A DNA stretch of 64,000 bases, from NCBI RefSeq assembly GCF_004010195.1, contig NC_057723.1:31211654-31275653 (forward strand), in the 5' to 3' direction. The stretch comes from Chiloscyllium plagiosum. Its lineage: Eukaryota. Within the stretch, counting starts at the first letter, position 1, and the number at the start of each line of letters is the position of its first letter. The notes beneath the pieces were generated by a model, which saw only the letters and a list, made by a program, of their open reading frames with translations, was not told the origin of the DNA and ran no database searches. The translations under genes were made by a program, and so were the position numbers. Below, piece by piece: positions 15,474 through 55,789 of the stretch.

Positions 15474-15502
15474 CAAATGCACAAACAATGCCAAAAAAAT
15501 AT

Positions 15503-15697
15503 AAAGTTAACAATCACACAACATCAGGTTATAGTCCAACAGGTTTATTTGAAAGCACTAGCTTTTGGAGCACTGCTCACCTGATGAAGGAGCAGTGCTC
15601 CAAAAGCTAGTGCTTCCAAATAAACCTGTTGGATTATAACCTGGCGTTGTGTGATTTTTAACTTTTTACATCCAAGTCCAACATTGGCATCTCCAAA
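15503..15697 (+). mobile_element. PLE-derived palindromic element (family B) with a hammerhead motif
   Basis: Arms 15503-15578 and 15590-15665; CAC-CTGATGA-AGGAGCAGTGCTCC-AAAAGCTA-GTG; ~30-nt unpaired 3' tail. Confidence 0.8.
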
Positions 15698-15999
15698 CCA
15701 GAAAATATACAATTACCAAAAGAAATACTCCCCCCAACCAAATGCTACTTATGGGTTGCCTTTTCTGCATTTGTTCAAGTCCAACATCTTTGCAAATTAT
15801 TACTGTGGACCCAAGCTTGTTCCTTGCACACCCCTTCTTTAGTCATGCCCCTGGAGCAGTGGTAACCAAAGCAAGTTGCAAATGGTGAGGAAAGAGGAAG
15901 GAATAATTAACAGCTGTGAATACTACAGAGTAATAAAGCAAATGGCACTAAGAAATGAAATATTGGTGAAGGATGCTGATCAAAGTATCAAGGTACATA

Positions 16000-17800
16000 G
16001 GTGAGTGCATAGTTGAAAGCCATTATTGTCTGTATTGAGCTCATATTTAACACCTTAATTGGAGAAAGTGGAGGTTTTGGCTCTGGGGAGTGGTCCATTT
16101 TAGTGAAGTGGGCACATCGCCTGCCATAGATGGATCTGTTTCTTCATATCTTGTAGCTTCATCCAGCAGCAGCCAAGGTCCTTGTAAATATTAAGTTCAT
16201 CTTTGAAATATGAACAGTCTTCCATTGCCACTCTATTATCTGCAGTGTGGCTGTTACACCAGTTGGGGAAAAAATATAGATTCCCACTTTGGAAGCCTGG
16301 AAATTATAGTCTAAATTTATATTGAGCACTTGCATACAGATTAAATGCTTTGGAGTCAGAGAACTGATAAGAAAATACTATCCTTAGCCAGCCTCTATGA
16401 TATAATAGGTACTTACAATTCATTAGTTGGTGCAGTGTGAACGAGAATAACTGTCATCTCAGCAATGAGAGTATAGAGGCTCTCTGCTTAAGCACTAGAC
16501 TCTGCCTGTGCCAGTTAATGCAGCCAAAGGTTCATTGGCACTGCATTGGTCTGACCAATGCTTTGGCTGATGGGACCCATGGTCTGTAGATAACAGAATA
16601 CAAAAAAGAAGGTTCTGGACCCAGTTGCTGCACTCTAAAGCAAGAAATAAAAGGAACAAAAACTGTCCACTCAGTGGACAGCACTGCTGCCTCATAGAGC
16701 TTGAGACCTGGGTTCAATTCCCACCTCGGGCAACTGACTGTGTGGAATTTGCACATTCTCCCCGTGTCTGCGTGGGTTTCCTCTGGGTGCTCCGGTTTCC
16801 TCCCACAGTCCAACGATGTGCAGGTTAGGTGAATTGGCCATGATAAATTGCCCATAGTGTCCAGGGACATGTAGGCTAGGTGGATTAGCCATGGGAAATG
16901 CAGTGTTAAAGGGGTAAGGGAAGGATCTGGGTGGGCTATACTTCAGAAAGTCGATGTGGTGAATGGTCTGCTTTCACACTTTTGTGCCTCTATGATCTGG
17001 TGATCAAGTAGCTTTTACTGTGTGCAGCTCAGGAGGTGCTCCTGAGGCAAGTGAGGTCCTGCAGCTGGTCCTTTCAGTCCTGGAGGTGATGGACCAGGCC
17101 TGTGCCTGTGCAATTCACAGTTCAGGGCCATCACCATCAGCATGAGGACTTCCTCCTCTACTTCAATCTGTCCATCAAGTTCTGCAGCTGCTGCTTCTAG
17201 ATGCTCTCTGTTCGGCCTTCAGTAAACAAAAAAAAGTTAAAACTTTCATTTTTAAAACCATGGTGAGGTGTGCAGTTCTGCACACCACGTGTCATTTGCA
17301 CTGATTTGTCTTTGAACTTCTGCAATACCATATCTCAAATTGTAACATCTTCAAACAATTGAATGAATGGCTTGAACAACTCTGGTTGCACACATGGCCT
17401 CCAATGTGCTCTTCACTGACATGGTTGTGCTCAGGTTGTAGCCATCATCAGCTCTTTCTGACTCCACACAGCTATCTTAGTTGGGATAGCAACCTGTCCT
17501 CAGTCCTTTCTGTCCTTGTTGCTTTGCAGGATGCTACAGATGGGAAGCAGAAAAGCTATAATGATCAATGGTGTTGCTATTGATACACACTGCTATTTTG
17601 AAAGATCTGGCTTATCTGCAAGCAATATGATTTGTGCTTTGTAGATCATCAGGGATCCACATGTATCCCATGAGGTCACAGTTCTCTGACTTGGGAACAC
17701 TCACCTGAATTCCACTGAACCATTCGCCATGCTACAATTGTGAAGCTCCAACTTGAATTTGTTAGTTGTTTCGAATGGACACATACCTGGAAATCCCAGC
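16000..17800 (-). mobile_element. Heavily decayed PIF/Harbinger relic
   Basis: Minus-strand GFPG-like (~17790) and VVC..HL-like (~17280) traces; weak. Confidence 0.35.
16672..16995 (+). mobile_element. HE1-type SINE
   Basis: GCACTGCTGCCTCA...GGGTTCAATTCC...GGTGCTCCGGTTTCCTCCCACAGTCCAA. Confidence 0.85.
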
Positions 17801-18496
17801 CTTCAACTGCGATCGTTCTATGCGAAAGTGGTGAAATAACCAGAATTACATCACTGTAACCAACTAGCTATTCCAATTAAAAGAATGTACATACCAATGT
17901 AAATACTACCTTTCCTACAATATATTACTTATGCTTGGATTTCAATACAGCTTCTGCCGAGGTCAAGAAAAAATAACTCAGTTTCATACAATCAGACATT
18001 TAAAACCTTGCCAATCATTCAGCATTACAGGTTGCTATTGACCAAACAGAATCTTAATGGGAAAGGCACTGTCTCAACAACTAGATGAAATTTACTGCAT
18101 GCTAGTAATAGGTACAAATTACACTAACTAGTCAGACATAATGATAAAGACTGTCAGGAGCCAGAGATGATATGTTTGGCTCCATGGTGACGTTGGGCTA
18201 GACTATGTCTTCTCTCCCCAGAGAGGATGTGACTTCAGCAGATTGTGTGAAGCTTAGTACTACTTCAGTATTAACTGTTTCAGAACCATTATCTTCCTCA
18301 AGAAGTACTGGGTGGATAAATGGTTAGGGCACCAGATATGTCAGTGGATAGTGTGCCAAGTTGGTCAGGAGTTAAAATATCACGTCAGGTAGCAGCAGGG
18401 TAAGGGATTAGGGTTGCAGATGGGTGATGGGGTATGGTGATAGAAGGGTGTGGAAGGGATTAGAATGCCATGTTGGTGAAAAGGTAGAGTGATAGC

Positions 18497-18541
18497 TGGC
18501 TGACGGCATGTCATGGCTGACGGCATGTCATGACTGACGGG
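18497..18541. repeat. 17-bp tandem repeat, about 2.5 copies
   Basis: GGCTGACGGCATGTCAT repeated. Confidence 0.85.
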
Positions 18542-20572: not shown

Positions 20573-21316
20573 TGTGAAGACAGTGTGGCTTTGAGAGATA
20601 TATTTTGACCTGGTTTCTTTTCAGAGAGAATACACTGCCAACTTTAGGGGCATTTAAATGGTCATTAGATAAGCATATGGACGAGAATGCAATAGTTTAG
20701 GTTAGGTGGGCTTCAAATTGGTTCCACAGGTCGGTGCAACATCGGGTCTGTACTGCACAGTAATGTTCTATGTTCTATAGATTGAATGAGAGGTAATGTA
20801 AACAGCTTATGCAGTCTTTTTTTTAAGTTGGAACAATAGAAGCAGCCTAGATGGGTGTGACCAGGTCTCCCAGACCATCATTTCTAGATCGTTTTTAGCT
20901 TTTACATTCAGCAGAAGTAGAAGCTATTTTTCCCTCTCGAGTACAGCTAGAAGCTGGGCTGTCTCTTGTTACTGTGGGAATTGCATGCAAAAAAAATCTG
21001 ATTTCTGAATTTGCCTTTTTGTCAATGGGTGTACTTGTGGGATGTTACTATATTTGAACAATTAATTAGTAATAGTTACTGTATCCATTATTCTGTTAAG
21101 TTTTCCAATAAAGTTAAGTTATTCTAAGTTCTTCCTTCATTTGTGCTATTTTAACTGTAGTGTTTGAATAAGTTGTTTTGCTCAATGCTGAGTAGTTTGA
21201 CAAGTCGAATTACATCTGGAACACAGCACTTTACATTTGCCTTTAAAATAAGAAAAAACTAGCATCTAGGCTACCTTCTTAAAATATTTTGAGAGGGTCT
21301 GGTCTAGTCCATAACA
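20573..21316. mobile_element. Solo LTR (Gypsy-like), with a CR1 tail inserted at ~20640-20778
   Basis: TGTGA...TAACA termini and 4-bp TSD ATTT (20569-20572, 21317-21320). Confidence 0.7.
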
Positions 21317-22530
21317 ATTTAGATGAGGAAAAATGGAAGGAGGTTTGATTGTTGAACCATTTAGACTAATTTTCATGCTGAATGTCCTAAGCAATCATGT
21401 CAGCAATTTTCTGTATATTCCTCAGGAAAGCTTGCACAATTTTGTCAGTTGTGTGAAATCTGTTTTATCTGGTAAGGGCCATGGTTAGTCAAAGGGTTAG
21501 ACGGTGCTCATCATTTTTGGTTCTATTTGAAGAATGTTTGAAAAATCCAATGTATAGATAAAAACATAAAGCAACCAGGAGGCAGCAACATAGAGTTCAA
21601 CAATGGGTTTCAGGTAAATTAATGGACAGTATTCAACATAGAAGCTCCTTTTTTTTATACTAATCAAGCTGTATATTATGGACACCACAACCACCTTTCC
21701 CCCTTGCTGAAAAGTCAGGGAATGCTGATGGTTGCAAGACTTTAACTCCTCTCTTGGGAACAAGTCAGAATTGGGTGGCCATCGACTCTGCTGTTGGAGG
21801 AGCAGCAGCTGGGAGCAGTGTTCTTGGTTGGAACTACTCACAGTTCCACTAAGCTGAAGAGACCAAATAAATCTGAGTCTGAGATCTTGGTGTTGGTGAG
21901 GGAGGGACAAAGATGTTCATGCGTTTGGTTCAGGGGGCTGAGTTAAAGTGAGTATGACCTGGGGGGAGGCGGAGGGAGCATCTCTGATCAACCTGGAGAT
22001 CTATCCCTATCCCATCACTCTTTCCCAATACCAACGCATGAAGTCAAATATACTGAGCTTCCTACATGATGCGAACATTCCATCATTATGGATAAACCAC
22101 CAGCAAAGGTATGATTGGCCACCAATGGAACAGTATATACCCAAGGGTGGCTTGAACTCCTGATGCCTTCCCAGCCGCTTCCCTCAGAGAGGCGGAGTAC
22201 TCCAAACTGGGAGTGTAAAAGATTCTGTGGCGTGGAATTTTAAGACCACTTCAGCCTTCAAATCTGCCGAGCCACTTTGCTCCTTGAGATGTTTGAGTCA
22301 CTGTGGTAATATATGCATTTTTATATTTAATATGTTTCACATGTGGTAACCTGAAGTAATGGATATTGTGGTGGATGCTCTAATTTCTTTTCACATTACC
22401 TGGCCAAGCATCTCTCATACTCTTACTGCCTGTTATTGGAATATATTAGAAGGGTTTAACAAGTTGCTGTTCAATCAGCAGGCTACCTCCCTTGGCCATT
22501 ATGTGCTGGAGTGAGACTTGAACCTGGAGT

Positions 22531-23137
22531 TAGACCATAAAATATAGGAGTAGAATTAGGCCATCCAGTCCACTGAGTCTGCTCCATAATTCGATCATCG
22601 CTGATGTGTTTTTACATCCCATTATGCTTCTAAACCCCATTGTTCTATCTTCTCACCATAACCTTTGATCCCCTTACTAATCAATAGCCCACTTTTCTCT
22701 CTTAAAGACACTCAATCACTTGGTAACCACAATGATTATGAGGCAATGAATTCCGTAGATTCACCACCCTCAGAATGAAGAAATTCCTCCTCATCTCAGT
22801 TCTAAAAGGTCGTCCCGTCACTCTGAGGCTGTGCCCTCAGTCCTACTTTCTTTCACTAGTGGAAACATGTGCTTTATGTTCACTCAATCCAGGCCTCTCA
22901 GTATTCTGTAAGTTTCAATCAAATACCCACTCATCCTTCTAAACTCCATCCAATACAGAGCCAGAGCCCTTAACCGCTCCTCATATGACAAGTCCTTCAT
23001 CCCTGGGATTACTCTTGTAAATCTCTTCTAACACCCCTCCTCGGCCAGACCATCTTTCCTTAGATATAGGGCCCAAAACTATTCACCATATTTCAGAAGT
23101 GTTCTAATCAGAGCCTTAAAGAGTCTCAGCAGTATAT
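22531..23137 (-). mobile_element. CR1 3' fragment inserted into a tRNA-SINE remnant
   Basis: Reverse complement gives GHSLRV and RRNFFI motifs; SINE B-box (TTGAACC) at ~22520, continuing at ~23370. Confidence 0.8.
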
Positions 23138-23353
23138 CTTCGAGGAGAAAGTGAGGTCTGCAGATGCTGGAGATCAAAGTTGAAACTTTATTGCTGGAAC
23201 AGCACAGCAGGTCAGGCAGCATCCAGGGAACAGGAGATTCGACGTTTCGGGCACAGGCCCTTCCTGAAGAAGGGCCTGTGCCCGAAACGTCGAATCTCCT
23301 GTTCCCTGGATGCTGCCTGACCTGCTGTGCTGTTCCAGCAATAAAGTTTCAAC
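23138..23353 (-). mobile_element. PLE-derived palindromic element (family A), young
   Basis: Perfect inverted arms of ~85 bp; 14-bp TSD TCTCAGCAGTATAT (23124-23137, 23354-23367). Confidence 0.9.
23261..23294 (+). ncRNA. Minimal hammerhead ribozyme
   Basis: UUC-CUGAAGA-A-GGGC CUGU GCCC-GAAACGUC-GAA; helix I UUC/GAA. Confidence 0.72.
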
Positions 23354-23689
23354 TCTCAGCAGTATATTTCTACTGGCAGAGATGCTCCCCACTGTGCTAC
23401 AGAATCTCTTAGTTCAGACTGTACTAACTTAAATCTTCTCAAATATTTGTGACGTCCATCATACAACATACTTTACCTCCCTAAATTCAGGAGCAATATA
23501 ACTAAACATTGCTGTCTATGTTAACTGTAAAAGGTAAAATTTTACAAAAAAGCTATATCACACCACACCTCGATAATTCACTTTGCCCCTTAAATCACTT
23601 ATGGCCATTGCATTTGTTCACCATAATGTAAATAGCATTTCTCAACTAGTTTACAACTTTCTATCCCTGTGGCAATGTGTATTTATTTT

Positions 23690-24200
23690 GTGCCTTTGAA
23701 GTAATCAACTATCTCAAACTGCTTCACAGGAGTGTTACCAATTAAAGTGGAACATTGAACCACAAAAGGATATATAAGGGCAGCGAACCAAAAGCCTAGT
23801 CAAAAAGTTTTATGCAGCACCATAGGGAGGACAAAGAGCTAAAGAGATGGAAGTGGTGAAGGATGGGATTCAAGGACTTAAGACTTCGTTGAAGCCATCA
23901 CAAGCAAAGTGATTAGAATCAAAGACACTCAAGTGTCTCAAATGCAGATCTGTAATTCTGGTTTCCTGTTCCCATGTCCCATGCTCTAGAATAACAACAA
24001 AATGTCTCTGTGTGTTTACCTGGCAGACTCCTTTCAGTTGCTCCTTAAAATCAACCTCTTTAATTAAGCCTGTGGCCATTTTACCTAATATGCCATTTTT
24101 GTGTCTCTGTGCCATGCTTTGTTTTATAATGCTCCTGTGAAGTGCCTTGGGTCATTTCAATATTTTAAAATACTACATGAATAAACGTTGTCTTTGTTGT
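23690..24200. mobile_element. Two L2-like 3' ends in opposite orientation
   Basis: GCTCCTGTGAAGTGCCTTGGG at ~24130 and its reverse complement GCTTCACAGGAG at ~23720. Confidence 0.55.
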
Positions 24201-24939
24201 AAAAAGTTGCACAAGTCTATGACAGACTGTCTGGAGGAGCATATGTTTCTGACACAGCTACTCAGAAAAATTACAGGAACCTGATTCAGGGTCTGTATAG
24301 CCAATGAACTGGGTAAAGATGCATGTAAGCAATGTTTCTCATTATTTCTATTCTCCAGGTCCAACTGCAGCTCCTTAAAGTTACCAGGTTCCCTGTTGCT
24401 GCTATTCCAGACCTTCCATTGTTCTTTTTCTAACCACACACTAGAATTCCCATGTTCCAAGAATATTCAACATCTCATATTTTGGCTTCACCTTGAGCTT
24501 CAATGAAAGCAAAACACTTCAGATGTTGGAAATTGGAAAACAAAAACAAAGTGCTGGAGAAACTCAGAAGGTCTGGCAGCGTCCGTGGAGCAAGAAATAA
24601 AGTTCATATTTCAAACCCTCTTCAGAAATCCAAAGTTAAATTCAGGGGCCCAAACTGTACACAGTGCTCTGGGTGTGGTCTCTCCAAAACTCTACAGTTA
24701 TAACAAGACTTCTTGATTTTTAAACTTGAACTCTTAGCGATAGAGCCAAAATTCAATTTGCCTTCTGAATTGCTTACTGCATTTGCATTCTTAGTTTTTG
24801 CTTCATTCACAAGTTCCAGATTTGTGTCCAAACAATATTCAGGTTTGGGGGTGACAAGGAATATTTGCCGCACACAAATACCAGGTGATATACTAGCGGT
24901 TATCATTCGCCAGAAACTCCACTGGACTCACCATAGAAA

Positions 24940-25540
24940 CACAGTGTTTCAAAGAGCTGATCAGAAGCTAGGAATTCTGCAATAAATAACTCATCACCTG
25001 ACTCCCCAAATCCTGTCCACCATCTACAAGCCACATTTCAGGGGTGTAATGGAATGCTCCTCACTTGCCTGAATGAGTATAGCTCCAATAACACTCAAGA
25101 AGCTGACACCATCCAGGACAAAGCAGCCCATTTGATAGGCACCACATTCACAAATATTCTGTCCATCCACGATCGACTAGCAGTGCGTAGCATTCAGAAG
25201 ATGCACTTCAGAAATTCTCCAAGGCTCATTAGACAGCACTTTCCAAATCCTTGGCCACTTCCATTGAGAAGGATAAGGACAGCAGATATATGGGGACATC
25301 ACCATTTTCAAGTTCTCCTCCAAGCAACATACCATGGAAATATAATGTTGTGCCTTAGAGTTAATGGACCAAAATCCAGAAAATCCCTCTCTAATGGTAT
25401 TTATATATATTCACTGCACATAGACTGCAGTAATTCAAGAAGGCAGCTCATCACCATCTTCTCAAGAGTGACTAGGGATGGGAAATAAATATTAGTCTAG
25501 ACAGGGATGGCCATATTACCTGAATGAAACAGAAAAACAG
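24940..25540 (+). mobile_element. CR1/L2-clade LINE 3' end of a distinct old family
   Basis: ORF 25054..25488 DTIQDKAAHLIG...SIHDR; A-rich end. Confidence 0.6.
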
Positions 25541-25607
25541 GAACATCCAGATCCTGTGTTGCACTCCCGGCATTTGAATATTAATTTGCCTTTAAATTGT
25601 TCATTCC

Positions 25608-26602
25608 ATTGAGTTTTTTGAAGAAGTAATAAAGAGAATTGATGAGGGCGGAGAAGTAGATGTGATCTATATGGACTTGTGTAAGGCATTCAATAAGGTT
25701 CTCCATGGGAGACTGATAGCAAGGTTAGATCTCATGGAATACAGGGAGAACTAGCCATTTGGATACAGAACTGGCTCAAACGTAGAAGACAGAAGGTGGT
25801 GGTGGAGGGTTGTTTTTCATTCAGGAGGCCTGTGACCAGTAGAGTGCAACAAGGATTGGTACTAGGTCTTCTACTTTTTGTCATTTATATAAATGATTTT
25901 GATGCGAACATAAGAGGTACAGTTAGTAGGTTTGCAGATGACACCAAAATTGGAGGTGTAGTGGACAGCGAAGAGAGTTACCTCAGATTACAACCGAGTA
26001 TAGGAGTTGTGAGGTCATGTTGTGGCTGTACAGGACATTGGTTAGGCCACTGTTGGGATATTGCATGCAATTCTGGTCTCCTTCCTATCGGAAGGATGTT
26101 GTGAAACTTGAAAGGGTTCAGAAAAGATTTACAAGGATGTTGCCAGGGTTGGAGGATTTGAGCTTTAGAGAGAGGCTGGACAGGCTGGGGCTGTTTTCTC
26201 TGGAGCGTCGGAGGTTGAGGGATAACCTTATAGAGGTTTACAAAATTATGAGGGGCATGGATATGGTAAATGGGCAAAGTCTTTTCCCTGGGGTGGGGGA
26301 GTCCAGAACTAGAGGGCATAGGTTTAGGGTGAGAGGGGAAAGATATAAAAGAGACCTAAGGGGCAACCTTTTCACACAGAGGGTGGTACAGGTATGAAAT
26401 GAGCCACCAGAGGTAGTGGTGGAGGCTAGTACAATTGCAATGTTTAAGAGGCATTTGGATGGGTATATGAATAGGAAGGGTTTGGAGGGAATATGGGCCG
26501 GGTGCTGACAGGTGCGACTAGATTGGGTTGGGATATCTGGTCGGCATGGATGGTTTGGACCGAAGGGTCTGTTTCCATGCTGTACATCTCTATGACTCTA
26601 TG
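25608..26602 (+). mobile_element. CR1 RT-to-3' end with an internal deletion at ~25993
   Basis: FADDTKIGG; LYRTLVRPLLGYCMQFWSP; CTCTATGACTCTATGA tail. Confidence 0.92.
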
Positions 26603-29194: not shown

Positions 29195-29395
29195 ATAGAA
29201 TCCCTACACTGCATAAAGATGCCATTCAGCCCATCAAGTCTACACTGACCCATTGAAGAGCATCCCACCTAGATCCTATACCTGCAGTTACCATGGCTAA
29301 TCCACCTAAACTGCATATCCACAGACACTATGGGCAATTTGACACACCCAATCCACCTAGCCTGCACGTCTTTGGATCTAATCACTGAGCCATTA
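29195..29395 (-). mobile_element. HE1-type SINE, partial
   Basis: TAGAATCCCTAC...GGGCAATTT...CCTGCACGTCTTTGG. Confidence 0.7.
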
Positions 29396-30758
29396 TGTTA
29401 CATATCGCTTCTTCTGAAATGCAATGACCACGATTGCACATTGTTTTCCAAAGGATAGCTAACTAGATTTAATTTGTTGTAAAATCTCAGTATAATTTAT
29501 GTGGATCGACTTTTTGCCATTCTGCCAACCTATACACAAATTCAATGTTTTAATTTTGTTCCACAATATCTCAACATTGAAAATACCAAGATTACTTTTA
29601 CTTTCAAACTGTGTTTGCAATCTTACCGTGTTTCTTATTTCTATTAATTGAATTCTACAGTCTTACAATGTGCAATAGTTTTCATCAATAATTTTAATTT
29701 TAATTTGCCATTTTTTTCCAATTTTGTTACAGTTAGAAATTGCTTTAACATGTTTTATACTTTTTACACAGCCACTGAACTATCCGTTTTCAAATTACCT
29801 GTGAATTAAACAAGCCTACATTTGGTTTCTCCACTGAATTCAATTAAGTAGGTAAGAAACAATAAGGAGTCAAAAATTTAGTAAGACCCATGATTAGGTG
29901 TAGCGATTATGAAACACAAATACTCTGTATCTAGTCCAGTCGACACAGGCAGCACATAAACTCCCTTTATTTTTTAATTGAATTTGAGTGTTGAGTGAAC
30001 CAAAGGGGTTTTTTGAAGACCAACAATGGCAATTCTTTGGCATTGGTCTTTCACTGGCCTGGTTGGATTTGAACATGTATCCTCCACAGCATTATCTTGG
30101 ACCTCAGAGCTACTAATCCAGTAAATTACTGCTTCATTGTCTCCTTCCACTTCATGCTGTGGGCTCTCTAACATGATTGTAGGGTCCAGTCCAGCAGGCC
30201 CTGACTGGCTGCCCATTCCACAGTGGGACCAACGATGTGCACTGCTCATACTGAAACCATTAGCATTGGCTGCAGCTATTCGGGTAAAGCTGTATATGAG
30301 CCTGCAATTTAGGCACTGGTAGAATGAAATGCAAGTAGCTCAGTTTTAGTTGCATTATTGTGGTCTTGGATAAATTTAACATGACTATTTTGGGGGGGGT
30401 TGTTATTTCATGATTTTGAAACAAAAGGATGGAGTGCTAGTCCTTACCAAATGGATTGAAAAGTAGTAAATTATGGAGCAGTGGTGGTTTGGGACTGAGA
30501 TTTCGGTAGAATCAAAATCTGAGTATCCATTCATTGACAACTTGTCCAATGAATTATTGTCCAGGATGATTCCTATCCCTTTCCTTCTTGTCTTCTGCCT
30601 CCTCTTTTTCCTTCTTTACTGGCAGCTGTCTCCAAAGGTCCAATGGCAAAGCTTGTGTCTTCTCTGACCACCAGTAACTTGGTGACATCCTCTACAATTT
30701 AATGGGGGGCTCCTCCAAGCAGTTCAGCCAGTTGTAGGATCATTGTTTCAGTACATTG

Positions 30759-30928
30759 TACAGAAAGTGAGGTCTGCAGATGCTGGAGATCAGAGCTGAA
30801 AATGTGTTGCTGGAAAAGCGCAGCAGGTCAGGCAGCATCCAGGGAACAGGAGAATCGACGTTTCGGGCATAAGCCCTTCTTCAGGATGCTGCCTGACCTG
30901 CTGCGCTTTTCCAGCAACACATTTTCAG
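30759..30928 (-). mobile_element. PLE-derived family A element with one arm partly deleted
   Basis: 12-bp TSD TTCAGTACATTG (30747-30758, 30929-30940). Confidence 0.88.
30854..30887 (-). ncRNA. Minimal hammerhead ribozyme
   Basis: Minus strand AUC-CUGAAGA-A-GGGCUUAUGCCC-GAAACGUC-GAU. Confidence 0.72.
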
Positions 30929-32849
30929 TTCAGTACATTGCAGTCTGCTTCATGATGCTCCTGGTAACAGCGTTTCTCTAATTGTAGATGTACTGACCTC
31001 ATCTTGTTGGGTAGCATAAAGGGATTCATAATTTAGGTGGAGATTAGCCAACCCTTATAACAAAGGAACCTGCCTCTGGTTTGTTATTGTGACAAAAAGA
31101 TGGCAGTTTGCCTGACAGAGGATGAGTGCATAATGGCTGCTGCTCGAAAAGCAGGTGTGATACCCTGTGCACACCAATGCACCTTTGTGGAGTCATAGAC
31201 CTTGTTTTGTGGTAGAACTCCCTGTTAGTATATAGCACACAATACCATATGCCTCAAGCTGATAGTGTCCTGCTGCACTGAGATCCCTGCTAGTCCAGTA
31301 AATCCATATGCATGCTGTTCCTTCATGGCTAAATAGAAGACAATGTATCTCCCTCCCCTGGATGCTGTTACCTCCCTGATGCAGTGATACCATCCTTACC
31401 CTGCTTTATTGCTCCAGGTCTGATTGGAGGAGGTTGTACATTTCATTTAGCACCTTCTTGCTGAAATGCTGGAACCTCTGACACTGCTCATGTTTGGGTT
31501 CAAGACCAGAAACTGCACCCTGAAGGTCCTTAACGTGGGGAGATCTACTCCTCCTTTATCTGCCTACAGCTTCCACTCTCTGATCCTAACCTCTACCTTT
31601 CCATCTTGTTGTAGCTCAGGAGGAACTTCAATTATAGTTTCCATGACTGAAAGCAGGCTTTCTCTAAATACGCCTTCTGATCCTCTGACCTCCTTGTCAA
31701 AATCCCACTCTTCAATCACTGTCAACATGGTATCTCTACGTACACTGCGGCAGTGAAAGTCAATAGACACCTCACTTGGGAGTTGAATTGAGATCCCTTC
31801 AAGTAATACTTGTCAGGACCAAAGACTAGAGAGCTCCTACATGGAGCTAAATAGTTCAGTGGAATTTATTAAAAGTTGACATAGCAAAGATCAATGGCAT
31901 TATGGAACTAAATTTTGCAGTCAAGTCACCAACTAATGAGTTCTATTAGAATATTGAATTAAGATTAAAATTGAATTTATTGTTTCACTGGAAATTGAAC
32001 ACAAAGCATTGAGCCCATGTTATTTTGTTGATATGGTAGTCTTTCATCTGACAATTTCTCAAGGATGGAGAAATGTGGATACAAATTTCTGTGACAATTT
32101 GGAGGAGTAGGGATGGAAGTGAGTAAATGCAATGTAAATATAAATATATGGTTTGGTGATGGATTATAATCAGGGCAATGAAGTACAGTTCAGCATCAAC
32201 AAAAAACATCTGGACAATGTACAGTGTGTTCAACCTGAACAGCAACTGGGAGTTAAGTTTCAGATTCAGGATTTCAGTCAAAAGCCAAACAACGTGGCTT
32301 TCATCTTGACAATTAGGCTGAAGGTAATTCCAGGTGGCTGGAATTCTACTGCATGGACAGAGCAACAGAACAGTATTGGAAGATCTATGGAATTAAAGTG
32401 GTTGACATCCTTCCATTTATGAGAGATGATCAGAATGCAGTCTCAGAATCTTGGTGAGGTCAGATGAAATCTTCAACTACATTTTTTTAACAAATTGAAC
32501 AAGCTGATTTTGGAAAGGCAAAGTCTTCCACAAGTAGCCCACATGAAATTATCCCTTGCCAATGATGCAGAATGACCTCTGCTGCCATTTTGCTTGCCGG
32601 GCTGGAGTCTTCCCTAGTGTTTCAGAAACCACGTGTTGGGGTGTTGTCAAACTTCTGTCCATAGCTGACTGAATAGTCTGCGCAGTATTTGGAGAAACAA
32701 CTCATGGAGTATCACACTTTGCATTCAATCTGAGACACTGAATCTAGCTGAAAGAAAGGAGCTGCCAAATCTGGGCTGGAAATTGTTCCAGGACAAGCCA
32801 GAAGGTACTTTCTCAAAAGATCACCAGTCACCACTGAACTGAAAAGTTT

Positions 32850-33719: not shown

Positions 33720-33860
33720 CGACGTCCTTCTAAAGAAAGTTCATTGAACATAAACTTAACTTTGCTTTATTCCACAGTTGCTGGCAGACCTGCTGAGTTC
33801 TTCCAACAATTTCTGTTTGAGTTTCTGGTTTCCGGCATTTGCAGTTCTTTGGCTTTTTTT
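33720..33860 (+). mobile_element. PLE family C terminal fragment
   Basis: TTAACTTTGCTTTATTCCACAGTTGCTGGCAGACCTGCTGAG...GGCATTTGCAGTTCTTT. Confidence 0.6.
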
Positions 33861-39030: not shown

Positions 39031-39039
39031 TTAGTACTA

Positions 39040-39745
39040 TTCCACTTCATATCTATTGTCCTATCCCTTCATTTAAATTACAAACTTATTTTATCTAGGT
39101 CAGCTTATTTATGCTTAAAATAGTAGTCTCGAATCCACTGAATTATGATTGTTGCTATCAAGGGCATCTACATTATAAGGTCATTAATTAGTCCTAATTT
39201 ATTGTACAATACTAGGTCTAGTATAGCCTATTTTCTGGTTGCCTCCAAAATGTGCTATTCCAAGAAACTAATCCCACAAAATGTTATGAACTCCTTTGCC
39301 AATGTGCCTTTTCCAGTTTATATGTAATTTAAAATTCCCTATGATTAGCTCTGCACCTTTCTCAACAATTCCCATTATATATTATTTTATATTCTATCCT
39401 ACCATGTGACTGTTATTAAGAATCATGTACACAATTCCCATAAGCGATATCCTACTTTTATAATTGGGTATTTCGATCAAATTGCTTCTACATCCTGGTT
39501 TCTTGAACTTAGGATATACTTCTCTCTGGTGTTAATAGTATAATTAATTAATGGAGCCACCGAGTTTCCTATCCTTCCTAAATAACATGTGGTCTTCAAT
39601 ATATAGATTCCAATCGATGTCAACCTGCAGCCCTGGCCCTGTAATGGCTTTCAGATAGTGCAAATAGAAATAAGGTAATGCAGTTAGTTCATCTGCTTTG
39701 TTTTGAATACTAAATGCATTCAGGTTTAGAGCCTTTAGTTTTAAA
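39040..39745 (-). mobile_element. Old CR1 endonuclease region
   Basis: LNLNAFSIQNKADEL...LFRKDR (ORF 39544..39834). Confidence 0.7.
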
Positions 39746-39965
39746 ACAAAAAACTGCAGGTGCTGGAAATCTGTAAAAACAGGAGTTGCTGGAGAAATTC
39801 TGCGGGTCTGGTAGCATCTGTGGAAGGAAAGCAATGTTACCCTTGTCCAGAACCAGAACCAGAACTGAAAACATGTTACTAGACCTGAAACATTAACTCT
39901 GCTTTCTCTCCACTGATGCTGCCAGGCCTGCTGCGTTTCTCCAACTATTTCTGTTTTTGTTTGAG
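39745..39965. mobile_element. PLE family C inverted-repeat element, decayed
   Basis: Arms TGCTGGAGAAATTC..GCATCTGTGG / CCACTGATGCTGCC..TTTCTCCAAC; GACCTGAAACATTAAC. Confidence 0.7.
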
Positions 39966-40106
39966 CCTTAGTTTTGTTGTTTTGTTATTTTTTAAATTTC
40001 TATTTTTACCTGTTGATTTAAATTTAGATGTAGATTCTTCTTGTCATGTTCTACTTATTATTTCCCACAATAATAATTTTCTGTCTCGACTCTTTTATTT
40101 ACCATA

Positions 40107-44307: not shown

Positions 44308-44410
44308 GAGAAAGTGAGGAATGAAGAAGGGCTTATGCCCGAAACGTCAATTCTCCTGCTCCTTAGATGCTGCCTGACCTGCTGCGCTTTTCCAGCAACA
44401 CATTTTTCAG
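44308..44410. mobile_element. PLE family A deletion derivative
   Basis: 16-bp TSD CTCATTACACAGTATG (44292-44307, 44411-44426). Confidence 0.85.
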
Positions 44411-45470: not shown

Positions 45471-45479
45471 GCAGCCTTC

Positions 45480-47600: not shown

Positions 47601-47689
47601 TGTCCTTTCTTTCTTATCCTCTCGTTGTCTTTGAACTTCCATACTTTCCCAACTATACTGTTTGTTTAACGGAAATAAATTTAAATGAA

Positions 47690-50300
47690 ATAACTGAAGA
47701 ATCATCCAGTGAAGCTTTGTGGGTGGAGCTAAGAAATAAGAAGGGGATGGTGATGTTACTGGGGTTGTACTTATAGGCTCCCAAATTGTCAACGGAAATT
47801 AGAGGAACAAATATGCAGGGAGTTTGGGGAGACTCTCAGGAGCAATTGGATTGTCATAGTTGGGGATTTTAATTTTCCTAACATAGACTGGGACTGCCAA
47901 TTTGTGAAGGGCTTTGGTGGGGTAGAATTTGTTAAGAACGTTCAGGAAAGTTACCTCAAGCAATAGATAGAGGGAAGGGGAAAAACTCGACCTACTCTTG
48001 GGAAACAAGGTAGGACAGTTGACGGAGGTGACACTGAGGGTGCACTTTAGGACCAGTGACCATAGTTCTAGACATTTTTAAATAGTTGTGGAGAGGGACA
48101 AACCTGGTCCACACCTTCAAGTTCTAAATTGGGGCAACATAAATTTTGATAGAATTAGACAGGAGCTTGCAGGGTTTCATTGGAGTGGTTTGTTTGCAGG
48201 CAAAGGGACCTCTGGCAAGTGGGTGGCTTTTAAAAGTGAGATAGCTGGAGTTCAAGGTCCATGTGTTCCTGCGAGGGTGAAAGGCAAGGTTTACAGGAAT
48301 AGAGAACCCTGGATGACAAGATATTGAGGCTTTGATCAGCAAAAATAAAGGAGTCTTAGCTCAGGTATAAGCAGCTGGGATCAAGGGAATCCCTGGAGGT
48401 ATACAAGCAATACAGGAGTTTACTGAAGAAGAAAATCAGCAGGGCAAAAAGGGAGCATGAGATAGCCATGGCTGAGAAGATTAGGATGAATCCAAAGAGG
48501 TTCTTTAAGTATATTAAAGGAAAAAGAATAACTAGAGAGAGAATAGGCCCCTCGAGGACCAAAGAGGACATGTGTTTGTAGAACTGTAAGGAGATGGCTG
48601 AGGTCCTCAATGAATATTTCTCCTTGATGTTTATCATGGAAAAAAAACTTGAAGACTTGGGAACTTAGGGAAGTTAGTGGTGATATCTTGGGGACAGTCC
48701 ATATCACAGTAGAGGAGGTGTTGGATATACTAGAATGTATGAAGATGGACAAATCTTCTCAACCTGAACAAATATATCCAAGAACGCCGCAAGTGGTTAG
48801 AGAAAATATTGCAGGGGTCCTGACTGATATTTTTGCATCATCCTTAGCCACAGATGAGGCCCCAGAAGTCTGGAGGGTAGAGAATGTTGTGCCCTTATTC
48901 AAGAAGGGCTGCAAAGAAAAACTTGGGAAATATAGACCAGTCAGCCTAACATCTGTGGTGGGTAAGTTACTTGAGATGATTCTGTGGGATAAGATATGCA
49001 TGCATTTGGAAAGACAGGGGTTTATTAGGAATAATCAGCATGGCTTTGTGTGTGGAAGATCATACCTCACTAATTGGTTAAAGTTCTTTGATTAAGTCAT
49101 CAAGAAGCTTGACGATGGCAGGCCGGTAGACGTAGTCTATATGGATTTCAGTAAGGCCTTTGATAAGGTTCTACATGGTAGGATACTTTGGCAAGTTAGA
49201 TCACATGGAATCCAAGGGGACTGGCAAATTCGATATACAATTGACTTGATGGTAGGAAGCAGAGGGTAATAGTGAAGGATGTTTGTTGGACTGGAGGCCT
49301 CTGACTAGTGGAGTGCCTCAGGGGTCAGTGCTGGGTCCACTGCTATTTGTCATCTATATCAATGATTTGGATGAGGATGCACAAGGCATGATTAGTAGGT
49401 TTGCAGATGACACTAAAATAGACGGTATCGTGGACAGAGAGGAAGGTTATCAGAAATTGCAGTAGGACATTGATCAGCTGGGGTAGAGGGCTGAGAAATG
49501 ATAAATGGAATTTAATATAGATAAATTTGAGGTCTTGCACTTTGGAAAGTCAAATCAAGGTAGGAGTTTCACTGTGAATAGTACAGCCTTAAGAAAGGTA
49601 GGGGAACAGATGGACCTTGGAGTTGAGGTTCTCTGAAAGTGGGCTCACAAGTAAACAGGGCAGTCAAGAAGGCTTTTGGCACACAGGCCTTCATCAGTCA
49701 AGGCATTGAGTATAGAAGCTGGGAAGTTATGTTGCAGTTGTACAGGACATTGGTGAGGCTGCACTTGAAGTATTGTATTCAGTTTTGGTCACCTTGCTGT
49801 AGGAAGGAGCTTATTGAACTGGAAAGAGTGCAGAATAAATTTATAAGGATGTTGTCAGGATTCAATTGTCTGAGTTACAGGGAAAGGTTGGACAAGCTTT
49901 AGAGTTTACGAGATTGAAGGCGGATCTTATACAAATGTATGAGATCATGAGAGGCATGGATATGGTGAATGCATTCAGTCTTTTTCCTAAGATTTGAGGA
50001 ATCAAAGACTAGAGGGCATCAGTTCAAGACTGGAGGAGAAAGAATAAAAGGGAACCTGAGGGGCAACTGTTTTACAAAGAGTGTTGTATACATGTGGAAT
50101 GATCTGCCAGCAGAAGTGGTGAGGCAGGTGTATTAGCATCATTTAAGAGGCATTTGGACAAATATATGGGTAGGAAGGCTTTAGAAGGATGTAGGCCAAG
50201 TGCAGGGAAATGGGGTTCATGTTTCTGGACATTTTGGTCGGCATGGACCAGTTTGGACTGAAGGGCCTGTCTCCATGCTGTAGGACTCCATGACTCTATG
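47690..50300 (+). mobile_element. CR1 LINE, 2.6 kb (endonuclease C-terminal half, RT, 3' end), decayed
   Basis: WVELRNKKG; VGDFNFPNIDW; YRPVSLTSVVGKLLE; [14 protein letters not shown]; FADDTK; GACTCCATGACTCTAT tail. Confidence 0.95.
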
Positions 50301-53300
50301 TCTTTATGTCTGTAACTGCTAATTTCCTCATTTTATTCCCTAAATCCCAAGCAGACAGCTTTGTCACGCTAACATAGTAATGCAGTGTTGCTTCACCAAA
50401 ACCAGGATCCTGGTGACCCCTTAACTTTTGGTGAACAGAACCCTTGGAATGACCATGGCTCGGAGTCCTGACTGATATGTTACGACTGATCAGTGACCAA
50501 ACCATCTGACTGATCTCCATGAATCTCTCCAACTGACTTACCCCTAATCCCTGGATTTATTCAACTGAACCTGCAGGACTGACCCTGATCCCACTGCCTG
50601 GACTGTAGAGAGACCCTGACCCTGGTAGTCACAAGAAATTGATTGTGTCCAAGGTCCCTGGTCTGATCGAATGATGGTCTGGACATCGAATGATGTCTTT
50701 TATGAACTCTGCCTGTACCCACTGATGGAACTACTGGAGCACTGTATTCTAAGTGGGGGTCAGAGATGTGACTTGATAATGTGGAGAGGCTGGGTTGTGA
50801 ATATCCTGCTTGGGAGTGTTGCTCATGGAACGTAACCTGAGATATTGCGGACTGCTGTTGAAGATGGAAGACCGAAGAAGCAAGTGGTGAGCTGGAGCTG
50901 TCAGGAACCCACTCTGACTGGTAGGTGGGGAATTGTTGCTGTTTAATATCTCTCTGCCATGTGGGAGAACAGGAAGCTGCTTATAAATTAGGCAAGGTGT
51001 GGTACTAATGATTGTTAATGCATGAAAATAGATCTCTCGCTATTCTCATCTCGTCTTTTATACTTTGGTTGGAAGATCAGACCATTTTTATTTGGCATTG
51101 AGAATCTCATTTTCCAATATCACTATATTTTCCAAACCAACTTTCCACTTCCCAAGTCCTTCAGGAGCCTGGAAAATTCAGCCCTTTAGTTTTCCTTTGT
51201 GTAATATTTCTGTGTTTTGTCATTAAAGAACATCTGCAGTCTTGAGCAGATATAGTCCGGTGACCCACCACTGCAGTAGCCAACTGCAAAGATTATATCA
51301 AATTTCTGTCAATCCAGGTTTTATTCTAGAATCTAAGTTGTCCAGTATTAACATGGAATTGTAACAGTACTGTATGTTAAACCTTTGTGATTTATCTGCA
51401 TTAAATTCCTCTTAATCTTCTGTGGTCAAAGGAAAGATGTTCTATGAAACATAATAATTCATACCTTATTGAAAAACAATTCATGGACAGTATAGTTAGT
51501 AGAATTCTTTGGTAGTCACACACATTTAATTTTAACTTCTAGTGTGTTTGCAGTGACAAGCCAGTCTTGCAATGAAATTTATTGCCCACTTGTGAAAGAA
51601 TAAAATTTGGATGCTTTTTTTTTGTGGCCAGGAATCAGTTAGTTCCTACTGCTTAATTTTCCCTCATTCTTCACAGGATATCAATGGGAAGCATGGTCAT
51701 AATCCATGACCAAAACCTGTTCACCGGTGCAGATTCGAAGGTGGGCAGTTTTGCAGGGATCCTTACTATGAGGAAAGGAATGAGTTGAGGGCAAGAAATC
51801 ATGAACTTTATTTGTAGATCTGGGAAGAATAAATATTAAAACTTGCCTTATTGAGCCTCATGTGGCCTAAATTCATTTCATTCCAGGGTTGGTATGGCAG
51901 CAAACCCTGCTGACATTCTCTCAATCCATCTAGTAAATATTTCAGTCAGGTCTGAATTACATTAAAAGAAACAGACCAGGTAATAATAGCTATTCCCTGG
52001 TCCTGTTTCTACCAGTATGGTTATGTTAAAATTGGTGCCACTTTATCAGTGGCTGGTGATTATTTTGATCTCTGTATGGCAAGTTCTTGATCACATCTGT
52101 GCTGCTTTAGTGTGGAGTTAACCAGACTCAAAGTTTAGCCATAGAAAAAGGGAAAACCATAATCGTTCACAACATGAAGAGACTTAAGAAAAGAAAGTAA
52201 AAATATCTTGAAGCTGGAATTGCAACAAAAAGGTAAATGCAATTATGAGAAACATTTTCCAAAGTACAATACATTTCACATTTTAAAAACAATTCTACAC
52301 ATATTGGTCACAAAATTGTTGACTATTTTGGTTTCGTCTCAATTGTGTGATAACGAACATGCCCATCTTCTGCTTTTTTACTGTTTCCATTATACCTGAA
52401 GTTTTTTTCTGGAAATCAAAGGGTTTAGATAAAAGCTCAACCTGTGAAAGGGAAACCTTTTTGTATAAGTTATAGATTGAGTTAAATAAAAGATTTTAAA
52501 ATACTTTACAGCTTTGTTTTCTGAAGTATTATCTATGCAGGGAAATGTTTCTAATTGTAAACTTCTCTATTGGATAAATATGCAAGCATCTTGTGGTTGG
52601 CATACTATATTTACAGGGCTATGGGAAAGAACAAAGAATTGGATCTCTCGAAAAACTGGTACAGACACAATGAGGTGAATCTTACAATTTTTGGGTAAAC
52701 AGCATTTCACTGAGTTTAACAAAGATTATCTCTCCACTACGATATCTCACCATATCTTACCAAACACACTTCCTCAACTACCTATTCGCCCAACTGTGCC
52801 CCTAATACCCAATTCTACTCCCAATCTGCCATCCACCAGTTCCCAGAACAGTTCACAACATAACAACTCACTGATATTCCTCTCATGCTATCTTTAAAAG
52901 GCTACTGAAACCCTGGACAAGTGTTGGCAATTTGCTGTTGCCCCTTTGCAACTCAGAAGTAAGACACAGTCACCACAAACCATGCTGCTCACAGTATATA
53001 GCAGGCATGGCTGACATTCCCTTGCACATAGAACACCATCCTCTCACGATAGTGTCACTGTTTAGCCATCAGGTCACACAGTTTACCTCAGACACATCCT
53101 GTCTAACCTCTCTAAATCATCACTACTCTCTTCCCAGTGTTCAATGTAGACTCACAGCCTGTACTTGTCCACTCGGAAAACAGGCAATCAGTCAGAGAAT
53201 TCCAAAGGTGAGCTTTTGTTTACTGACAGAAAATAAAATTGTCAACAAAACAAGTAAAGGCTGCAGGTCGCTCCGACAATGCAAATCAAGGACTGGCATG

Positions 53301-53449
53301 GTAGCCAACAACTATTCTACATTCCATGGTGGTCTCTGTCCTCAGCTCTCATCTACTGGAACCAGATATCAGTCAGGTATATCTGCCTTGTGGTAGTGAC
53401 ATGGCTGAGCTGTGTTACAGAGATTCCTCCTACCACTGTCCTTGTCCTC

Positions 53450-54330
53450 CTTGTAAGAATGCTTTTGTTATCCCAGCATCTACCACATTGCCTAGTTTCC
53501 TGCTCCAGTTTGCACAGCATAGCACACCAGGTCACAGAGTGATGAGGCACACTCTGTCCAAGCTACACTGGAGACAACCTCTCTCTCATCCAGACTGACC
53601 CAAACAGAAGAACCACATCCCCATCAGCCCTATCTTCTGCTCCTCCATGGCCCTGGTCACAGGACAGGTAAACATTGAATCTGTGCTCAGTATCAGTTTT
53701 AGTATTGTTAAATGGAGTCATCAGCCATGGTCACAGTGGGTAGCCATGATTTCCCATTAGCTAGTCTTTAAAGGCAGCTGAAATCTCAAATATACCAGGT
53801 ACACGAGGATGCTCCAGGATGAAGCAGTCATGGCAGCTGCCAGCGCAGTGGGCATACACCTTCAGGAAGCAGTAACGGTGATCACAAATCAACTGTGCCT
53901 TAATCAAACAGAAGCTCTTCTTCTATAGAATTCCACAGTGGTGTAATATGGTCCTCTCCAGTGCCATGTGTGTATAGTCGATGGTATCCTGCATCTGGGA
54001 GAAGCCAACTATGTTTCTGAATTGAGCTTCAGCACTAACCAGTCATTGGAACTGGTGTGATCATGCTCAATTGACATATGTCACTGTCCTTGTGCATTTT
54101 TGGGCACATTCCTGAGAGATCCCACACAGGTTTCTTGTTGCTTCCTGGAAAGAGTCAATCATATAGTCATGCAACTGTCACCTTCACAACCATTGGGAGA
54201 GGATGGCCTCTCACACCTGCAGCCATCAATTCCCATAATTTAATCATTGTATCCTGGGACACAAGGAGCCTGCATTGACTATGACCCGTACATCCCCAGG
54301 AATGGAGCCAGGAATGAGGCATGATGGAAT
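53450..54330 (-). mobile_element. Harbinger (HARBI1-type) transposase relic
   Basis: GHPLPMVVKVTVA; GFSQMQDTIDYTHMAL (cf. GFPQVQGAIDCTHV); VYAHCAGSCHDCFIL (cf. ARYPGSCHDAFIL); C-terminal CC..N-like motif. Confidence 0.75.
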
Positions 54331-55303
54331 GGAGTTGGGGAGGAAAGCAGGTGAGAATAGTCAGTGGTGGCATATCCTGCAGATGAGGGCTATGCATACT
54401 TCATCACACAGTGAGACATGCTGTACCCAGACAATGAGGGTCATGTTTATATCATTCATTCAGATTCAGCCTCAGCGTATGTACCAAGATGTGAAGGTAC
54501 CACACTAGATGAGTACTCAAGATGTTACATCAAAATGGGAGTCCTTGCTTCCTCCAACCCCTTCCCATTCCAGACTTATAACATCCATAAAGCTTATCAT
54601 TTCAGTCAGTGGAGTCCATTGTAATACTTAGAAGACAAATGATGAAGCGATTGTCTTCACCTCTCACTGGACCTTTGCACAAGTTATGGGCCCCTTCTCC
54701 TTAAGTCATTGCCTCAAACTTCTGCATCATTGAGCTGTCAATGTTCAATTTGCAAGCAACAGTTGCATGTTGCAAATTGTTTTTCACCAGCATTTGAAAG
54801 TGAAGCATGTTCCCTGTAAATGCTTTGCAACTGGACAATGAAATGATTTCAAATTAAATGTTGCTGCAGCTTGTAAGTGCATTTTACATGTATTTGTCCC
54901 TTCAATGTGCAGCAGATGTGGATCTCGCACTTCCATCCATCAGATTAACACTGACTCTGCCCATCCTGGGTGTTGTCCCAGCCTTTTTTTCAGTTGCAGT
55001 TAAATTTTAGTGAACAGCAAGTGACAGAAAGGGAACACAACTTGTGCTGGATATCATCAGCACCAGACTCCACCTGGTCACTTGGTACCAATTCTCCACC
55101 CAAAAGCCTTTCTCCACCTTTTTAAGATGATGTTCATAAAGTGGGAGGAAGCTCAGTTCAAGGACGACTGAGGAAGAATATTCTGAAAAACTGAAAGATC
55201 CATACAGAAACAGAACTTACAAAATATAAAACTAATAATAACGTGAATGTACAGGAAGAATAGTGATACAGTGGCTGATATATTTCAATATTGTCAATAT
55301 TTG

Positions 55304-55789
55304 TTGTGATTTTGTTCGCCGAGCTGAGAATTTGTGTTGCAGACGTTTCATCCCCTGTCTAGGTGACATCCTCGGTGCTTGGGAGTCTCCTGTGAAGCGC
55401 TTCTGTGATGTTTCCTCCAGCATTTATAGTGATTTGTGCCTGCCGCTTCCGGTTGTCAGTTCCAGCTGTCCGCTGCAGTGGCCGGTATATTGAAACAGCC
55501 AGGGAATTCCTAGAGGCATGGCACTCATCCACAGATTCAATCAATAAGCACATCGATCTAGACCCAATATACCGGGCAATGCAGCGGACAGCTGGAACTG
55601 ACAACCGGAAGCGGCAGATACAAATCACTATAAATGCCGGAGGAAACATCACAGAAGTGCTTCACAGGAGGCTCCCATGCACTGAGGATGTCACCTAGAC
55701 AGGGGATGAAATGTCTGCAACACAAATTCCCAGCTCGGCGAACAGAACCACAACAACGAGCACCCGAGCTACAAATCTTCTCCCAAATC
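55304..55789 (+). mobile_element. 5'-truncated Penelope-like insertion (family D) with inverted terminal repeat
   Basis: Arms 55301-55490 and 55568-55755; spacer encodes AREFLEAWHSSTDSINKHIDLDPIY (PLE endonuclease C-terminus); ~34-nt tail; 13-bp TSD TTGTCAATATTTG (55291-55303, 55790-55802). Confidence 0.9.
55679..55718 (+). ncRNA. Hammerhead ribozyme motif with a longer helix II
   Basis: GCA-CUGAGGA-UGUCACCUAGACAGGGGAU-GAAAUGUC-UGC; the mirror copy at 55342-55375 (-) retains GAAACGUC. Confidence 0.65.

Follow-up and report, generated by a model that had tools for sequence, protein, structure and literature searches.

The window, meaning the whole stretch of 64,000 nucleotides analysed here, contains broken end-pieces of Penelope-like elements (PLEs), each with a small self-cleaving RNA motif. 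Very probably, these copies are the dead, 5'-truncated pseudo-LTR ends of several endonuclease-bearing PLEs in a bamboo-shark-like genome, and the motif is a known minimal hammerhead. The shark families, designated A to D, represent further members of a published kind of minimal-hammerhead PLE and are preserved mostly as decayed copies (Table 1).

Table 1. Insertions, arms and other features assigned to families A to D in the window
Family	Position	Strand	Feature	Details
A	2007..2198	.	Older inverted insertion	Right core intact, palindrome decayed to AUGU; left core broken
A	12632..12849	.	Head-to-head insertion, 36-nt tail, 15-nt duplication	Minus-strand core intact, C3 at 12757
A	23138..23354	.	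Head-to-head insertion, 40-nt tail, 14-nt target-site duplication	Arms 86 nt, 100% complementary
A	23264-23291	+	Intact hammerhead core of the 23138..23354 insertion	
A	30759..30929	-	Insertion, 34-nt tail, 12-nt duplication	Intact core, C3 at 30884
A	44308..44410	+	Insertion without most of left arm, 16-nt duplication	C3 absent, ACGU retained
A	56668..56782	+	Solo arm, tail absent, 15-nt duplication	Intact core, C3 at 56691
B	1..195	-	Third copy, ends at window edge	Upstream sequence and first core half, G5 -> A
B	2401..2692	+	Second copy, native sequence upstream	GAAA and AGCU retained; C3 and helix II decayed
B	15500..15701	.	Head-to-head insertion, 33-nt tail, 8-nt exact duplication	AGCU in both arms
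C	4363..4447	+	Solo arm	Core damaged, helix III AUGU
C	6927..7250	.	Tandemly duplicated inverted insertion with four arms	No intact core
C	10905..11050	+	Arm	Heavily decayed
C	24517..24625	-	Arm and tail	Helix II partly deleted
C	33730..33845	+	Arm and tail	Decayed
C	39743..39967	.	Inverted insertion with tail of about 32-34 nt	Decayed ribozyme in right arm
D	55301..55789	.	Head-to-head insertion, 33-nt tail, 13-nt duplication	Arms 192 nt, 93% complementary
D	55495..55698	+	Final 67 codons of PLE RT + GIY-YIG ORF	Stop codon within helix II

Anatomy and origin of the insertions

The pieces are often arranged head-to-head and truncated at the 5' end, with a tail on one end only. An earlier note on this DNA had described tails of 30-35 nt in A, B and D. 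One-sided tails are indeed present (36, 40 and 34 nt in A, 33 nt in B and in D), but they are not confined to these families: the view of C as tailless was abandoned after a tail of about 32-34 nt was seen at 39743-39776. Across all four families, tails span 32-40 nt. Exact target-site duplications of 12-16 nt flank 6 of the 9 insertions tested, a length of 12 nt being reached by 0/2000 control pairs. For B and C, exact duplication extends over just 6-8 nt and is near chance, as 4.75% of controls reach 8.

Family D carries the protein evidence. Across 67 aa, its ORF shows 87% identity with a Chiloscyllium protein that contains RT and GIY-YIG-like parts, the Pfam RT and GIY-YIG scores in D's relatives being under curated cut-offs. 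A zinc-finger-like linker between RT and endonuclease is absent, as read by eye, in the D relative P0003, which fits the Penelope/Poseidon definition, and the start of the D ORF at stem II is likewise as in that clade. The ATG at 55688 coincides with A9 of the core and begins a reading frame of at least 34 codons across arm and tail, with the cut site 28 nt downstream. This ORF, together with the truncated head-to-head pieces, the tails and the target-site duplications, bears out the PLE origin that the earlier note had proposed.

For families A, B and C, a tblastn search with two Poseidon-type relatives gave no protein link and matched D only. Word searches of candidate remnants returned no database protein match, pairwise BLASTP comparisons were not significant, and five phmmer matches were rejected as Ig, ankyrin or repeat proteins. 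No long ORF starts at the core in these three families, and Pfam, applied to 11 ORFs of the window, yielded a single weak RT match at 48628-49092. A, B and C may belong to the Neptune clade, whose marker is a CX2-5CxxC linker in the ORF.

The window holds three unrelated lineages rather than the four independent ones initially supposed, since A shares homology with C in both arm and tail (alike in 4/4 comparisons versus 0/500 shuffles). The flanks of B and D, each represented by one insertion inside 15503-55789, proved unrelated to the other families by sequence comparison, as had been claimed. D is assigned to the Penelope/Poseidon type, B stands separate, and A is the sister family of C.

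Hammerhead core and its decay

A strict minimal-hammerhead descriptor that leaves palindrome and helix I unspecified picks out 6 motifs in the window against a mean of 0.03 and a maximum of 1 in 100 dinucleotide shuffles. None of the 15 Rfam matches with E up to 1 is to a hammerhead family, the hairpin-type matches being sub-threshold only, as would be expected if the motifs were chance matches in palindromic repeats. The likelihood of this is negligible: apart from the shuffle result, hammerhead position and spacing are equal across unrelated families, and the motifs fit the published consensus, including an unpaired base after A9 and the G10.1-C11.1 pair (PMC4209133). The shuffle test and that alignment refute it.

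The core, taken as CUGANGA ... GAAA N N U H with helix II, can be read directly in A and D arms, in B by combining copies, and in C through a loose-end consensus and the G12 variant seen in DNA sequencing runs. It is complete in 6 of 24 ribozyme-bearing arms (5 A, 1 D), complete with a palindromic helix III in 4 (all A) and broken in the remaining 18, the intact arms being the least diverged; the 24 leave aside four arms lacking ribozyme sequence (30884-30931, 39777-39839, 38942 and 42564), as in the A insertion at 30759..30929, whose second arm is short. All letters given earlier for helix II, the triplet and helix III in A, B and D were found. The 4-nt palindrome attributed to these families holds for A (7/9 arms) and B (3/3 readable) but in D for only 1/2 arms, and in C for 0/9. 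The right arm of D has an intact core (55682-55715) with AUGU and the left arm has ACGU with U4 -> C, so that core and palindrome occur together in 0/2 arms; the 10.1-11.1 pair is G-U in both, probably through a CpG transition. Helix I CAC/GUG, previously given for B, is a junction artefact, the first C coming from the inverted arm. It was rejected as native since two other B copies, outside 15503-55789, read TAC and TTC at this site.

Decay at CpG bears on whether the ribozyme is a mere passenger, already lost from some lineages, with a C source already ACAU and a B source without G12. Besides having ACGU in 0/9 arms, C shows CA at 15.2/16.2 in 5/9, and each of the four arms in the insertion at 7 kb carries A at 16.2. 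G12 -> A occurs in both arms of the B copy at 15.5 kb (AAAA, not GAAA), one published coelacanth row likewise reads C A (PMC4209133), and ribozyme mutants of PAc, a Poseidon element of Anolis carolinensis, insert normally in vitro (PMC11167929). Every such change in the shark copies is, however, a CpG transition; TG and TA also occur in C, and the second B copy retains G12. In three DNA sequencing runs, variation in family C at 15.2/16.2 is confined to C/T and A/G, and so is that of a control CpG at 11.1/G12, where the essential G12 has the same CA excess. The majority letter at 16.2 is A, G making up 23-26% of summed depth versus 31-39% at the control CpG, but the reference carries A at this position and biases the read count. 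Read depth climbs from 0.54 to 1.06 to 1.54 million at 7177, 7182 and 7187, and copies unlike the reference are therefore clipped. Overall, we regard the passenger reading as improbable; C probably had an ACGU centre that has since eroded at its CpG.

It is equally unlikely that a very abundant C sub-lineage kept multiplying after its source had lost the palindrome (ACAU). If true, this would amount to evidence from a genome that PLE retrotransposition in vivo can do without the dimer ribozyme, sister family A, which retained ACGU, serving as a natural control. A family C pattern scan of metagenome contigs gave 0 matches. In one RNA run, 415 reads over the C arm, about 2% of a poly(A) single-cell run set against a decayed reference, showed no pile-up of ends and say nothing on cleavage.

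Covariation, dimer pairing and selection

A MAFFT alignment of 13 arms placed B and D out of register, and pairs were taken from core-anchored slices. In these, the base after A9 and G10.1-C11.1 are present, and in helices I and II both partners of a pair change from family to family. The earlier note had taken covariation to indicate selection on a dimer-dependent ribozyme. Helices I and II do covary, which in these sequences supports the fold, not a dimer over a monomer. The dimer-specific change amounts to one swap: ACGU/AGCU is the sole compensatory change at pair 15.2-16.2 in the window. All hammerheads have A15.1-U16.1, and the most common helix III state is ACGU. The swap had already been published by Cervera and de la Peña (2014, PMC4209133). 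By our hand count, 40/41 loopless motifs published there are palindromic, with four letter types and AGCU in 5; the centres listed in its Fig. S3 include CG, GC, UA and AU.

Under a nearest-neighbour model without tertiary contacts, the best dimer fold is 9-20 kcal/mol more stable than the double-hammerhead fold in 6/6 copies, and two separate monomers are also more stable than it in 6/6. This unfavoured naked fold agrees with a reading that we find plausible, if somewhat short of probable, in which the hammerhead is selected yet cleaves mainly because the element's protein folds the RNA, dimer pairing being secondary or restricted to the RNP. PAc, whose layout D shares, shows no hammerhead cleavage without protein (PMC11167929), and published dimer cleavage is low (PMC4209133). 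On the other hand, palindromes in four letter types need base pairing between two copies. Protein dependence is compatible with the explanation preferred here, and the two are non-exclusive.

Helix I forms at most 1 bp between families in 11/12 ordered cross-family pairs, A x B giving 1 bp. An ACGU x AGCU heterodimer was rejected as a clean test of the palindrome, as the mismatched helix I confounds it.

The ribozymes of the inverted insertions are computed to be sequestered in hairpins, with helix II at probability 0 in 5/5 folds of two-armed inversions. Together with the 18/24 arms without a full core, this places selection elsewhere than on the window copies. That the inversions themselves are working dimeric ribozymes selected in the host is hardly credible, even with four intact A arms bearing the palindrome and one insertion whose arms match perfectly: with the two arms on opposite strands, any one transcript contains a single sense ribozyme, and strand layout, folds and core counts largely refute the idea.

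In our preferred explanation, each source element would carry a type-I minimal hammerhead whose loopless helix III pairs only with a second RNA copy. The two copies would come from a tandem pair of pseudo-LTRs or from separate transcripts, and the element's own protein probably assists the pairing. Purifying selection on source elements would have preserved the fold while helices I and II diverged, with ACGU -> AGCU presumably occurring once among them. Inserted copies were probably made from uncleaved RNA, because the whole core upstream of the cut site is retained. Insertions would end at either of two reverse-transcription start points, the arm end or the tail end, and would then have decayed, notably at CpG.

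Relation to known hammerhead-bearing PLEs

Because the covariation is one already published swap and the copies are fossils, the window leaves the ribozyme's role in transposition where it stood: the literature reports weak dimer cleavage, protein-assisted cleavage and insertion in vitro for which cleavage is dispensable. PLE hammerheads with a palindromic short stem III are reviewed as cleaving as dimers (PMC6765202), and PMC4209133 reads the loopless palindrome as pairing in trans, reporting no monomer cleavage and low dimer cleavage. Cleavage by PAc, the sole PLE assayed with its own protein, needs that protein (PMC11167929). The shark families nevertheless offer a handy high-copy resource, sisters A and C plus B with AGCU, for genome-wide tests of palindrome retention in young subfamilies.

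No shark appears in the main text of PMC4209133 or among the Fig. S3 rows examined. The hammerheads of the window share with the minimal hammerheads described there the type-I core, one base between A9 and helix II, G10.1-C11.1, a short helix I, a loopless palindromic 15.1-16.1, several covarying families per genome, and solo and opposite-strand copies. Helix I of the Clonorchis(2) row in Fig. S3, GCA/UGC, is the same as in D. The insertions also resemble those of other PLEs (Arkhipova et al. 2013, PMC3846280; Craig et al. 2021, PMC8557442) in 5' truncation, head-to-head inverted pLTRs, a 30-40 bp tail at one end and target-site duplication, the duplications being 12-16 nt here versus 8-10 bp in rotifer PLEs and the units, unlike theirs, only 100-490 nt. 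PAc is known from assays with protein, whereas D is a dead inversion of 490 nt known here from sequence; the two are alike in an ORF start at stem II, a cut site 26 (PAc) versus 28 nt (D) downstream, a tail that corresponds to the stretch between two RT start sites, and insertions from uncleaved RNA (PMC11167929).

Hammerhead motifs and their lineages

The hammerheads that the earlier note read in the window were borne out in outline. In this repeat-rich DNA of ~39% G+C, a descriptor requiring core, helix II and GAAA-N-N-U-H, and leaving palindrome and helix I free, found 6 motifs, against a mean of 0.03 (maximum 1) in 100 dinucleotide shuffles; an Rfam search of the window returned no hammerhead family. 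Self-comparison and inspection gave 24 ribozyme-bearing arms, copies of the end-piece (pLTR) of Penelope-like elements (PLEs): 9 of family A, 4 of B, 9 of C and 2 of D, a count that leaves out four more arms without the ribozyme region. The whole core is kept in six (5 A, 1 D), and core and palindrome together in four, every one of family A. The palindromic helix III claimed for A, B and D holds for A (ACGU, 7 of 9 arms) and for B (AGCU, all three readable arms), and for only one of the two D arms (ACGU). These hammerheads are real, and are shark additions to an already described type.

Four lineages had been proposed. Three unrelated ones remain, since A and C are homologous over the arm and the tail, the short stretch beyond one arm (scores 51-63, 0 of 500 shuffles, 4 of 4 comparisons), and B (36-380 of 500 shuffles) and D are unrelated to the other families; one borderline D comparison (6/500) gave 458/500 with a second A copy instead. 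The one-sided tails described for A, B and D are present (A 36, 40 and 34 nt; B and D 33 nt each), and C has one too. Exact flanking duplications of 12-16 nt occur at 6 of 9 insertions tested (five A, and D), and those at B and two C insertions measure 6-8 nt only; among 2000 control pairs, none reached 12 nt and 4.75% reached 8. Inverted pLTRs, tails and target-site duplications of PLEs are already described in the available parts of PMC3846280 and PMC8557442.

Coordinates of features in the window
Position	Feature	Remark
907-1584	Assembly gap	678 N, inside a LINE fragment
4363; 12757-12760; 15579; 23264	Starts of short A, B and C copies	A few bases from the hammerhead 5' edge, away from the cut site
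6927-7250	Tandem duplication of family C palindrome	Period ~138 nt, centre spacer included
7138-7300	Family C arm	Reference for word depths
11700-11910 (+)	By eye, likeness to N-terminal part of PLE ORF	No match in word search or Pfam
38185-38342	Repeats 38696-38850	74%
38400-39040 (+)	Frame-broken stretch, then CT-rich region, then an arm and a tail of family C; perhaps a C copy of greater length	By eye, likeness to end of GIY-YIG domain, no database support
39743-39776	Family C tail	~32-34 nt
44308-44321	A insertion with just the outer ~13 tail bases, then right arm; looks like hairpin-arm loss	Flanked by 16-nt duplications
25697-26604; 48628-50301; 57591-58836; 58327-59105	Many RT-encoding LINE fragments, which we take to be CR1-like	Include a 249-nt inverted pair at 82%
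48628-49092	Weak RVT_1 match	

Covariation and the helix III palindrome

Covariation between families had been taken to indicate selection on a dimer-dependent ribozyme. Read from one arm per family and anchored on the core, pairs 10.2-10.4 of helix II and 2.1-2.2 of helix I differ on both sides between families; this part stands and supports the hammerhead fold, without telling a monomer from a dimer. At the dimer-specific pair 15.2-16.2 there is a single change, in B, which by itself argues weakly for dimer dependence; to our knowledge, A15.1-U16.1 is constant across all hammerheads.

It is through the literature alone that the dimer covariation claim becomes strong. As far as its available text goes, the 2014 survey of metazoan minimal hammerheads (PMC4209133) lists family-consensus covariation and palindromic 15.2-16.2 among the features that its search brought out; in its experiments, cleavage was absent for monomers and low for dimers. 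By hand count, 41 of 56 rows of its Fig. S3 are loopless (CG 29, GC 5, UA 5, AU 1, CA 1); the CG and GC rows mean that ACGU and AGCU have been published since 2014. Neither its main text nor the rows counted include sharks; a limited literature search did not establish a cartilaginous-fish report, and prior publication is possible.

The cross-family ACGU x AGCU assay was rejected as a clean palindrome test. Helix I forms between copies too, so that an A x B heterodimer, with 1 bp of helix I in common in each direction, would be confounded; helix I reaches at most 1 bp in 11 of 12 ordered cross-family pairs. CAC as the B helix I strand also had to be abandoned, because in the 15.5 kb copy its first C is the final base of the inverted arm, and the two native-upstream copies read TAC and TTC. 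G12 is absent from both arms at 15.5 kb and kept in the copy at 2.6 kb.

None of the nine family C arms has ACGU (CA five times; TG, TA, AA and a deletion once each; the two most decayed read by eye). Three DNA runs, of 21,240-29,658 contigs apiece, and an RNA run of 415 reads were aligned to the reference C arm. Loose ends show an intact first core half, with a helix I strand GUU that fits the downstream AAC. The runs gave summed word depths, which are distinct from copy counts: the only alternative letter listed is T at 15.2 (17%) and G at 16.2 (23-26%), and the control CpG 11.1/G12, the C-G required for a working core, shows T at 18-21% and G at 31-39%. 15.2/16.2 and the control site thus both resemble CpG decay, and the source state was likely ACGU. 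Against this stands the majority letter at 16.2, A, which exceeds the control site; the letter in the reference is itself A, and a steep rise in depth over 7177-7187 argues that copies unlike the reference were clipped. That a sub-lineage with a true ACAU multiplied without the palindrome is unlikely in our judgment, and ACGU remains the likelier source state.

Cleavage model and fate of the copies

In the source element, a loopless helix III would need a second RNA copy to pair with; following the published double-hammerhead model, each copy would supply its partner's cut site and helix I 3' strand. Folding computations do not favour the naked double-hammerhead fold, which in all 6 copies examined sits 9-20 kcal/mol higher than the best dimer fold. 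This accords with the protein-assisted cleavage reported for PAc, the Poseidon PLE of Anolis carolinensis; in the available text of PMC11167929, insertion persisted when the ribozyme was mutated, and RNA reads with an end at the cut site were absent. Window copies retain the part of the core that precedes the cut site, which argues that the templates were uncleaved RNA. Outside the helix I 5' strand (before 7159-7161), sequence is heterogeneous in three DNA runs (agreement 0.42-0.46), and a template RNA beginning near the hammerhead 5' edge is suggested.

Selection on the window copies themselves is not upheld: 18 of 24 arms lack the whole core, and predicted helix II probability is 0 in 5 of 5 two-armed cases. 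It is at least 0.94 in two A copies that lack a complete second arm, and 0 in a mutated solo B copy as well. Head-to-head insertions, with two inverted arms, place two ribozymes on opposite strands; together with the zero helix II probability, this argues that selection acted on source elements. The window copies are fossils in decay.

Source elements and comparison with PAc

Protein, word and Pfam searches of window and database sequences yielded no ORF link for A, B or C, whose PLE status follows from architecture and motif. The D ORF remnant matched Chiloscyllium punctatum and Hemiscyllium ocellatum proteins in 7 of 13 candidates (72-90% identity), as fits DNA from a bamboo-shark-like genome. 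It comprises the last 67 codons of an ORF and shows 87% identity to a 463-aa protein. That protein has an RT, with a Pfam E of 3e-6 that stays below cut-off, and its end is GIY-YIG-like, at E 0.03 among relatives. Read by eye, it lacks a cysteine linker between these domains, in accord with Penelope/Poseidon by the definition given in the available part of PMC8557442. The D ORF tail is also carried by P0002 and P0008, two host isoforms annotated in Chiloscyllium (5'-nucleotidase domain protein 1 and MAP3K7), as read-through or annotation into D insertions.

The D stop codon lies within helix II, and from an ATG at A9 a reading frame runs on for at least 34 codons. The D ORFs therefore overlap the hammerhead, whose letters are also protein-coding, a second constraint on them. 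In PAc, according to the accessible part of PMC11167929, the ORF starts at stem II and the cut lies 26 nt downstream; in D the start is at A9 and the cut site 28 nt further.
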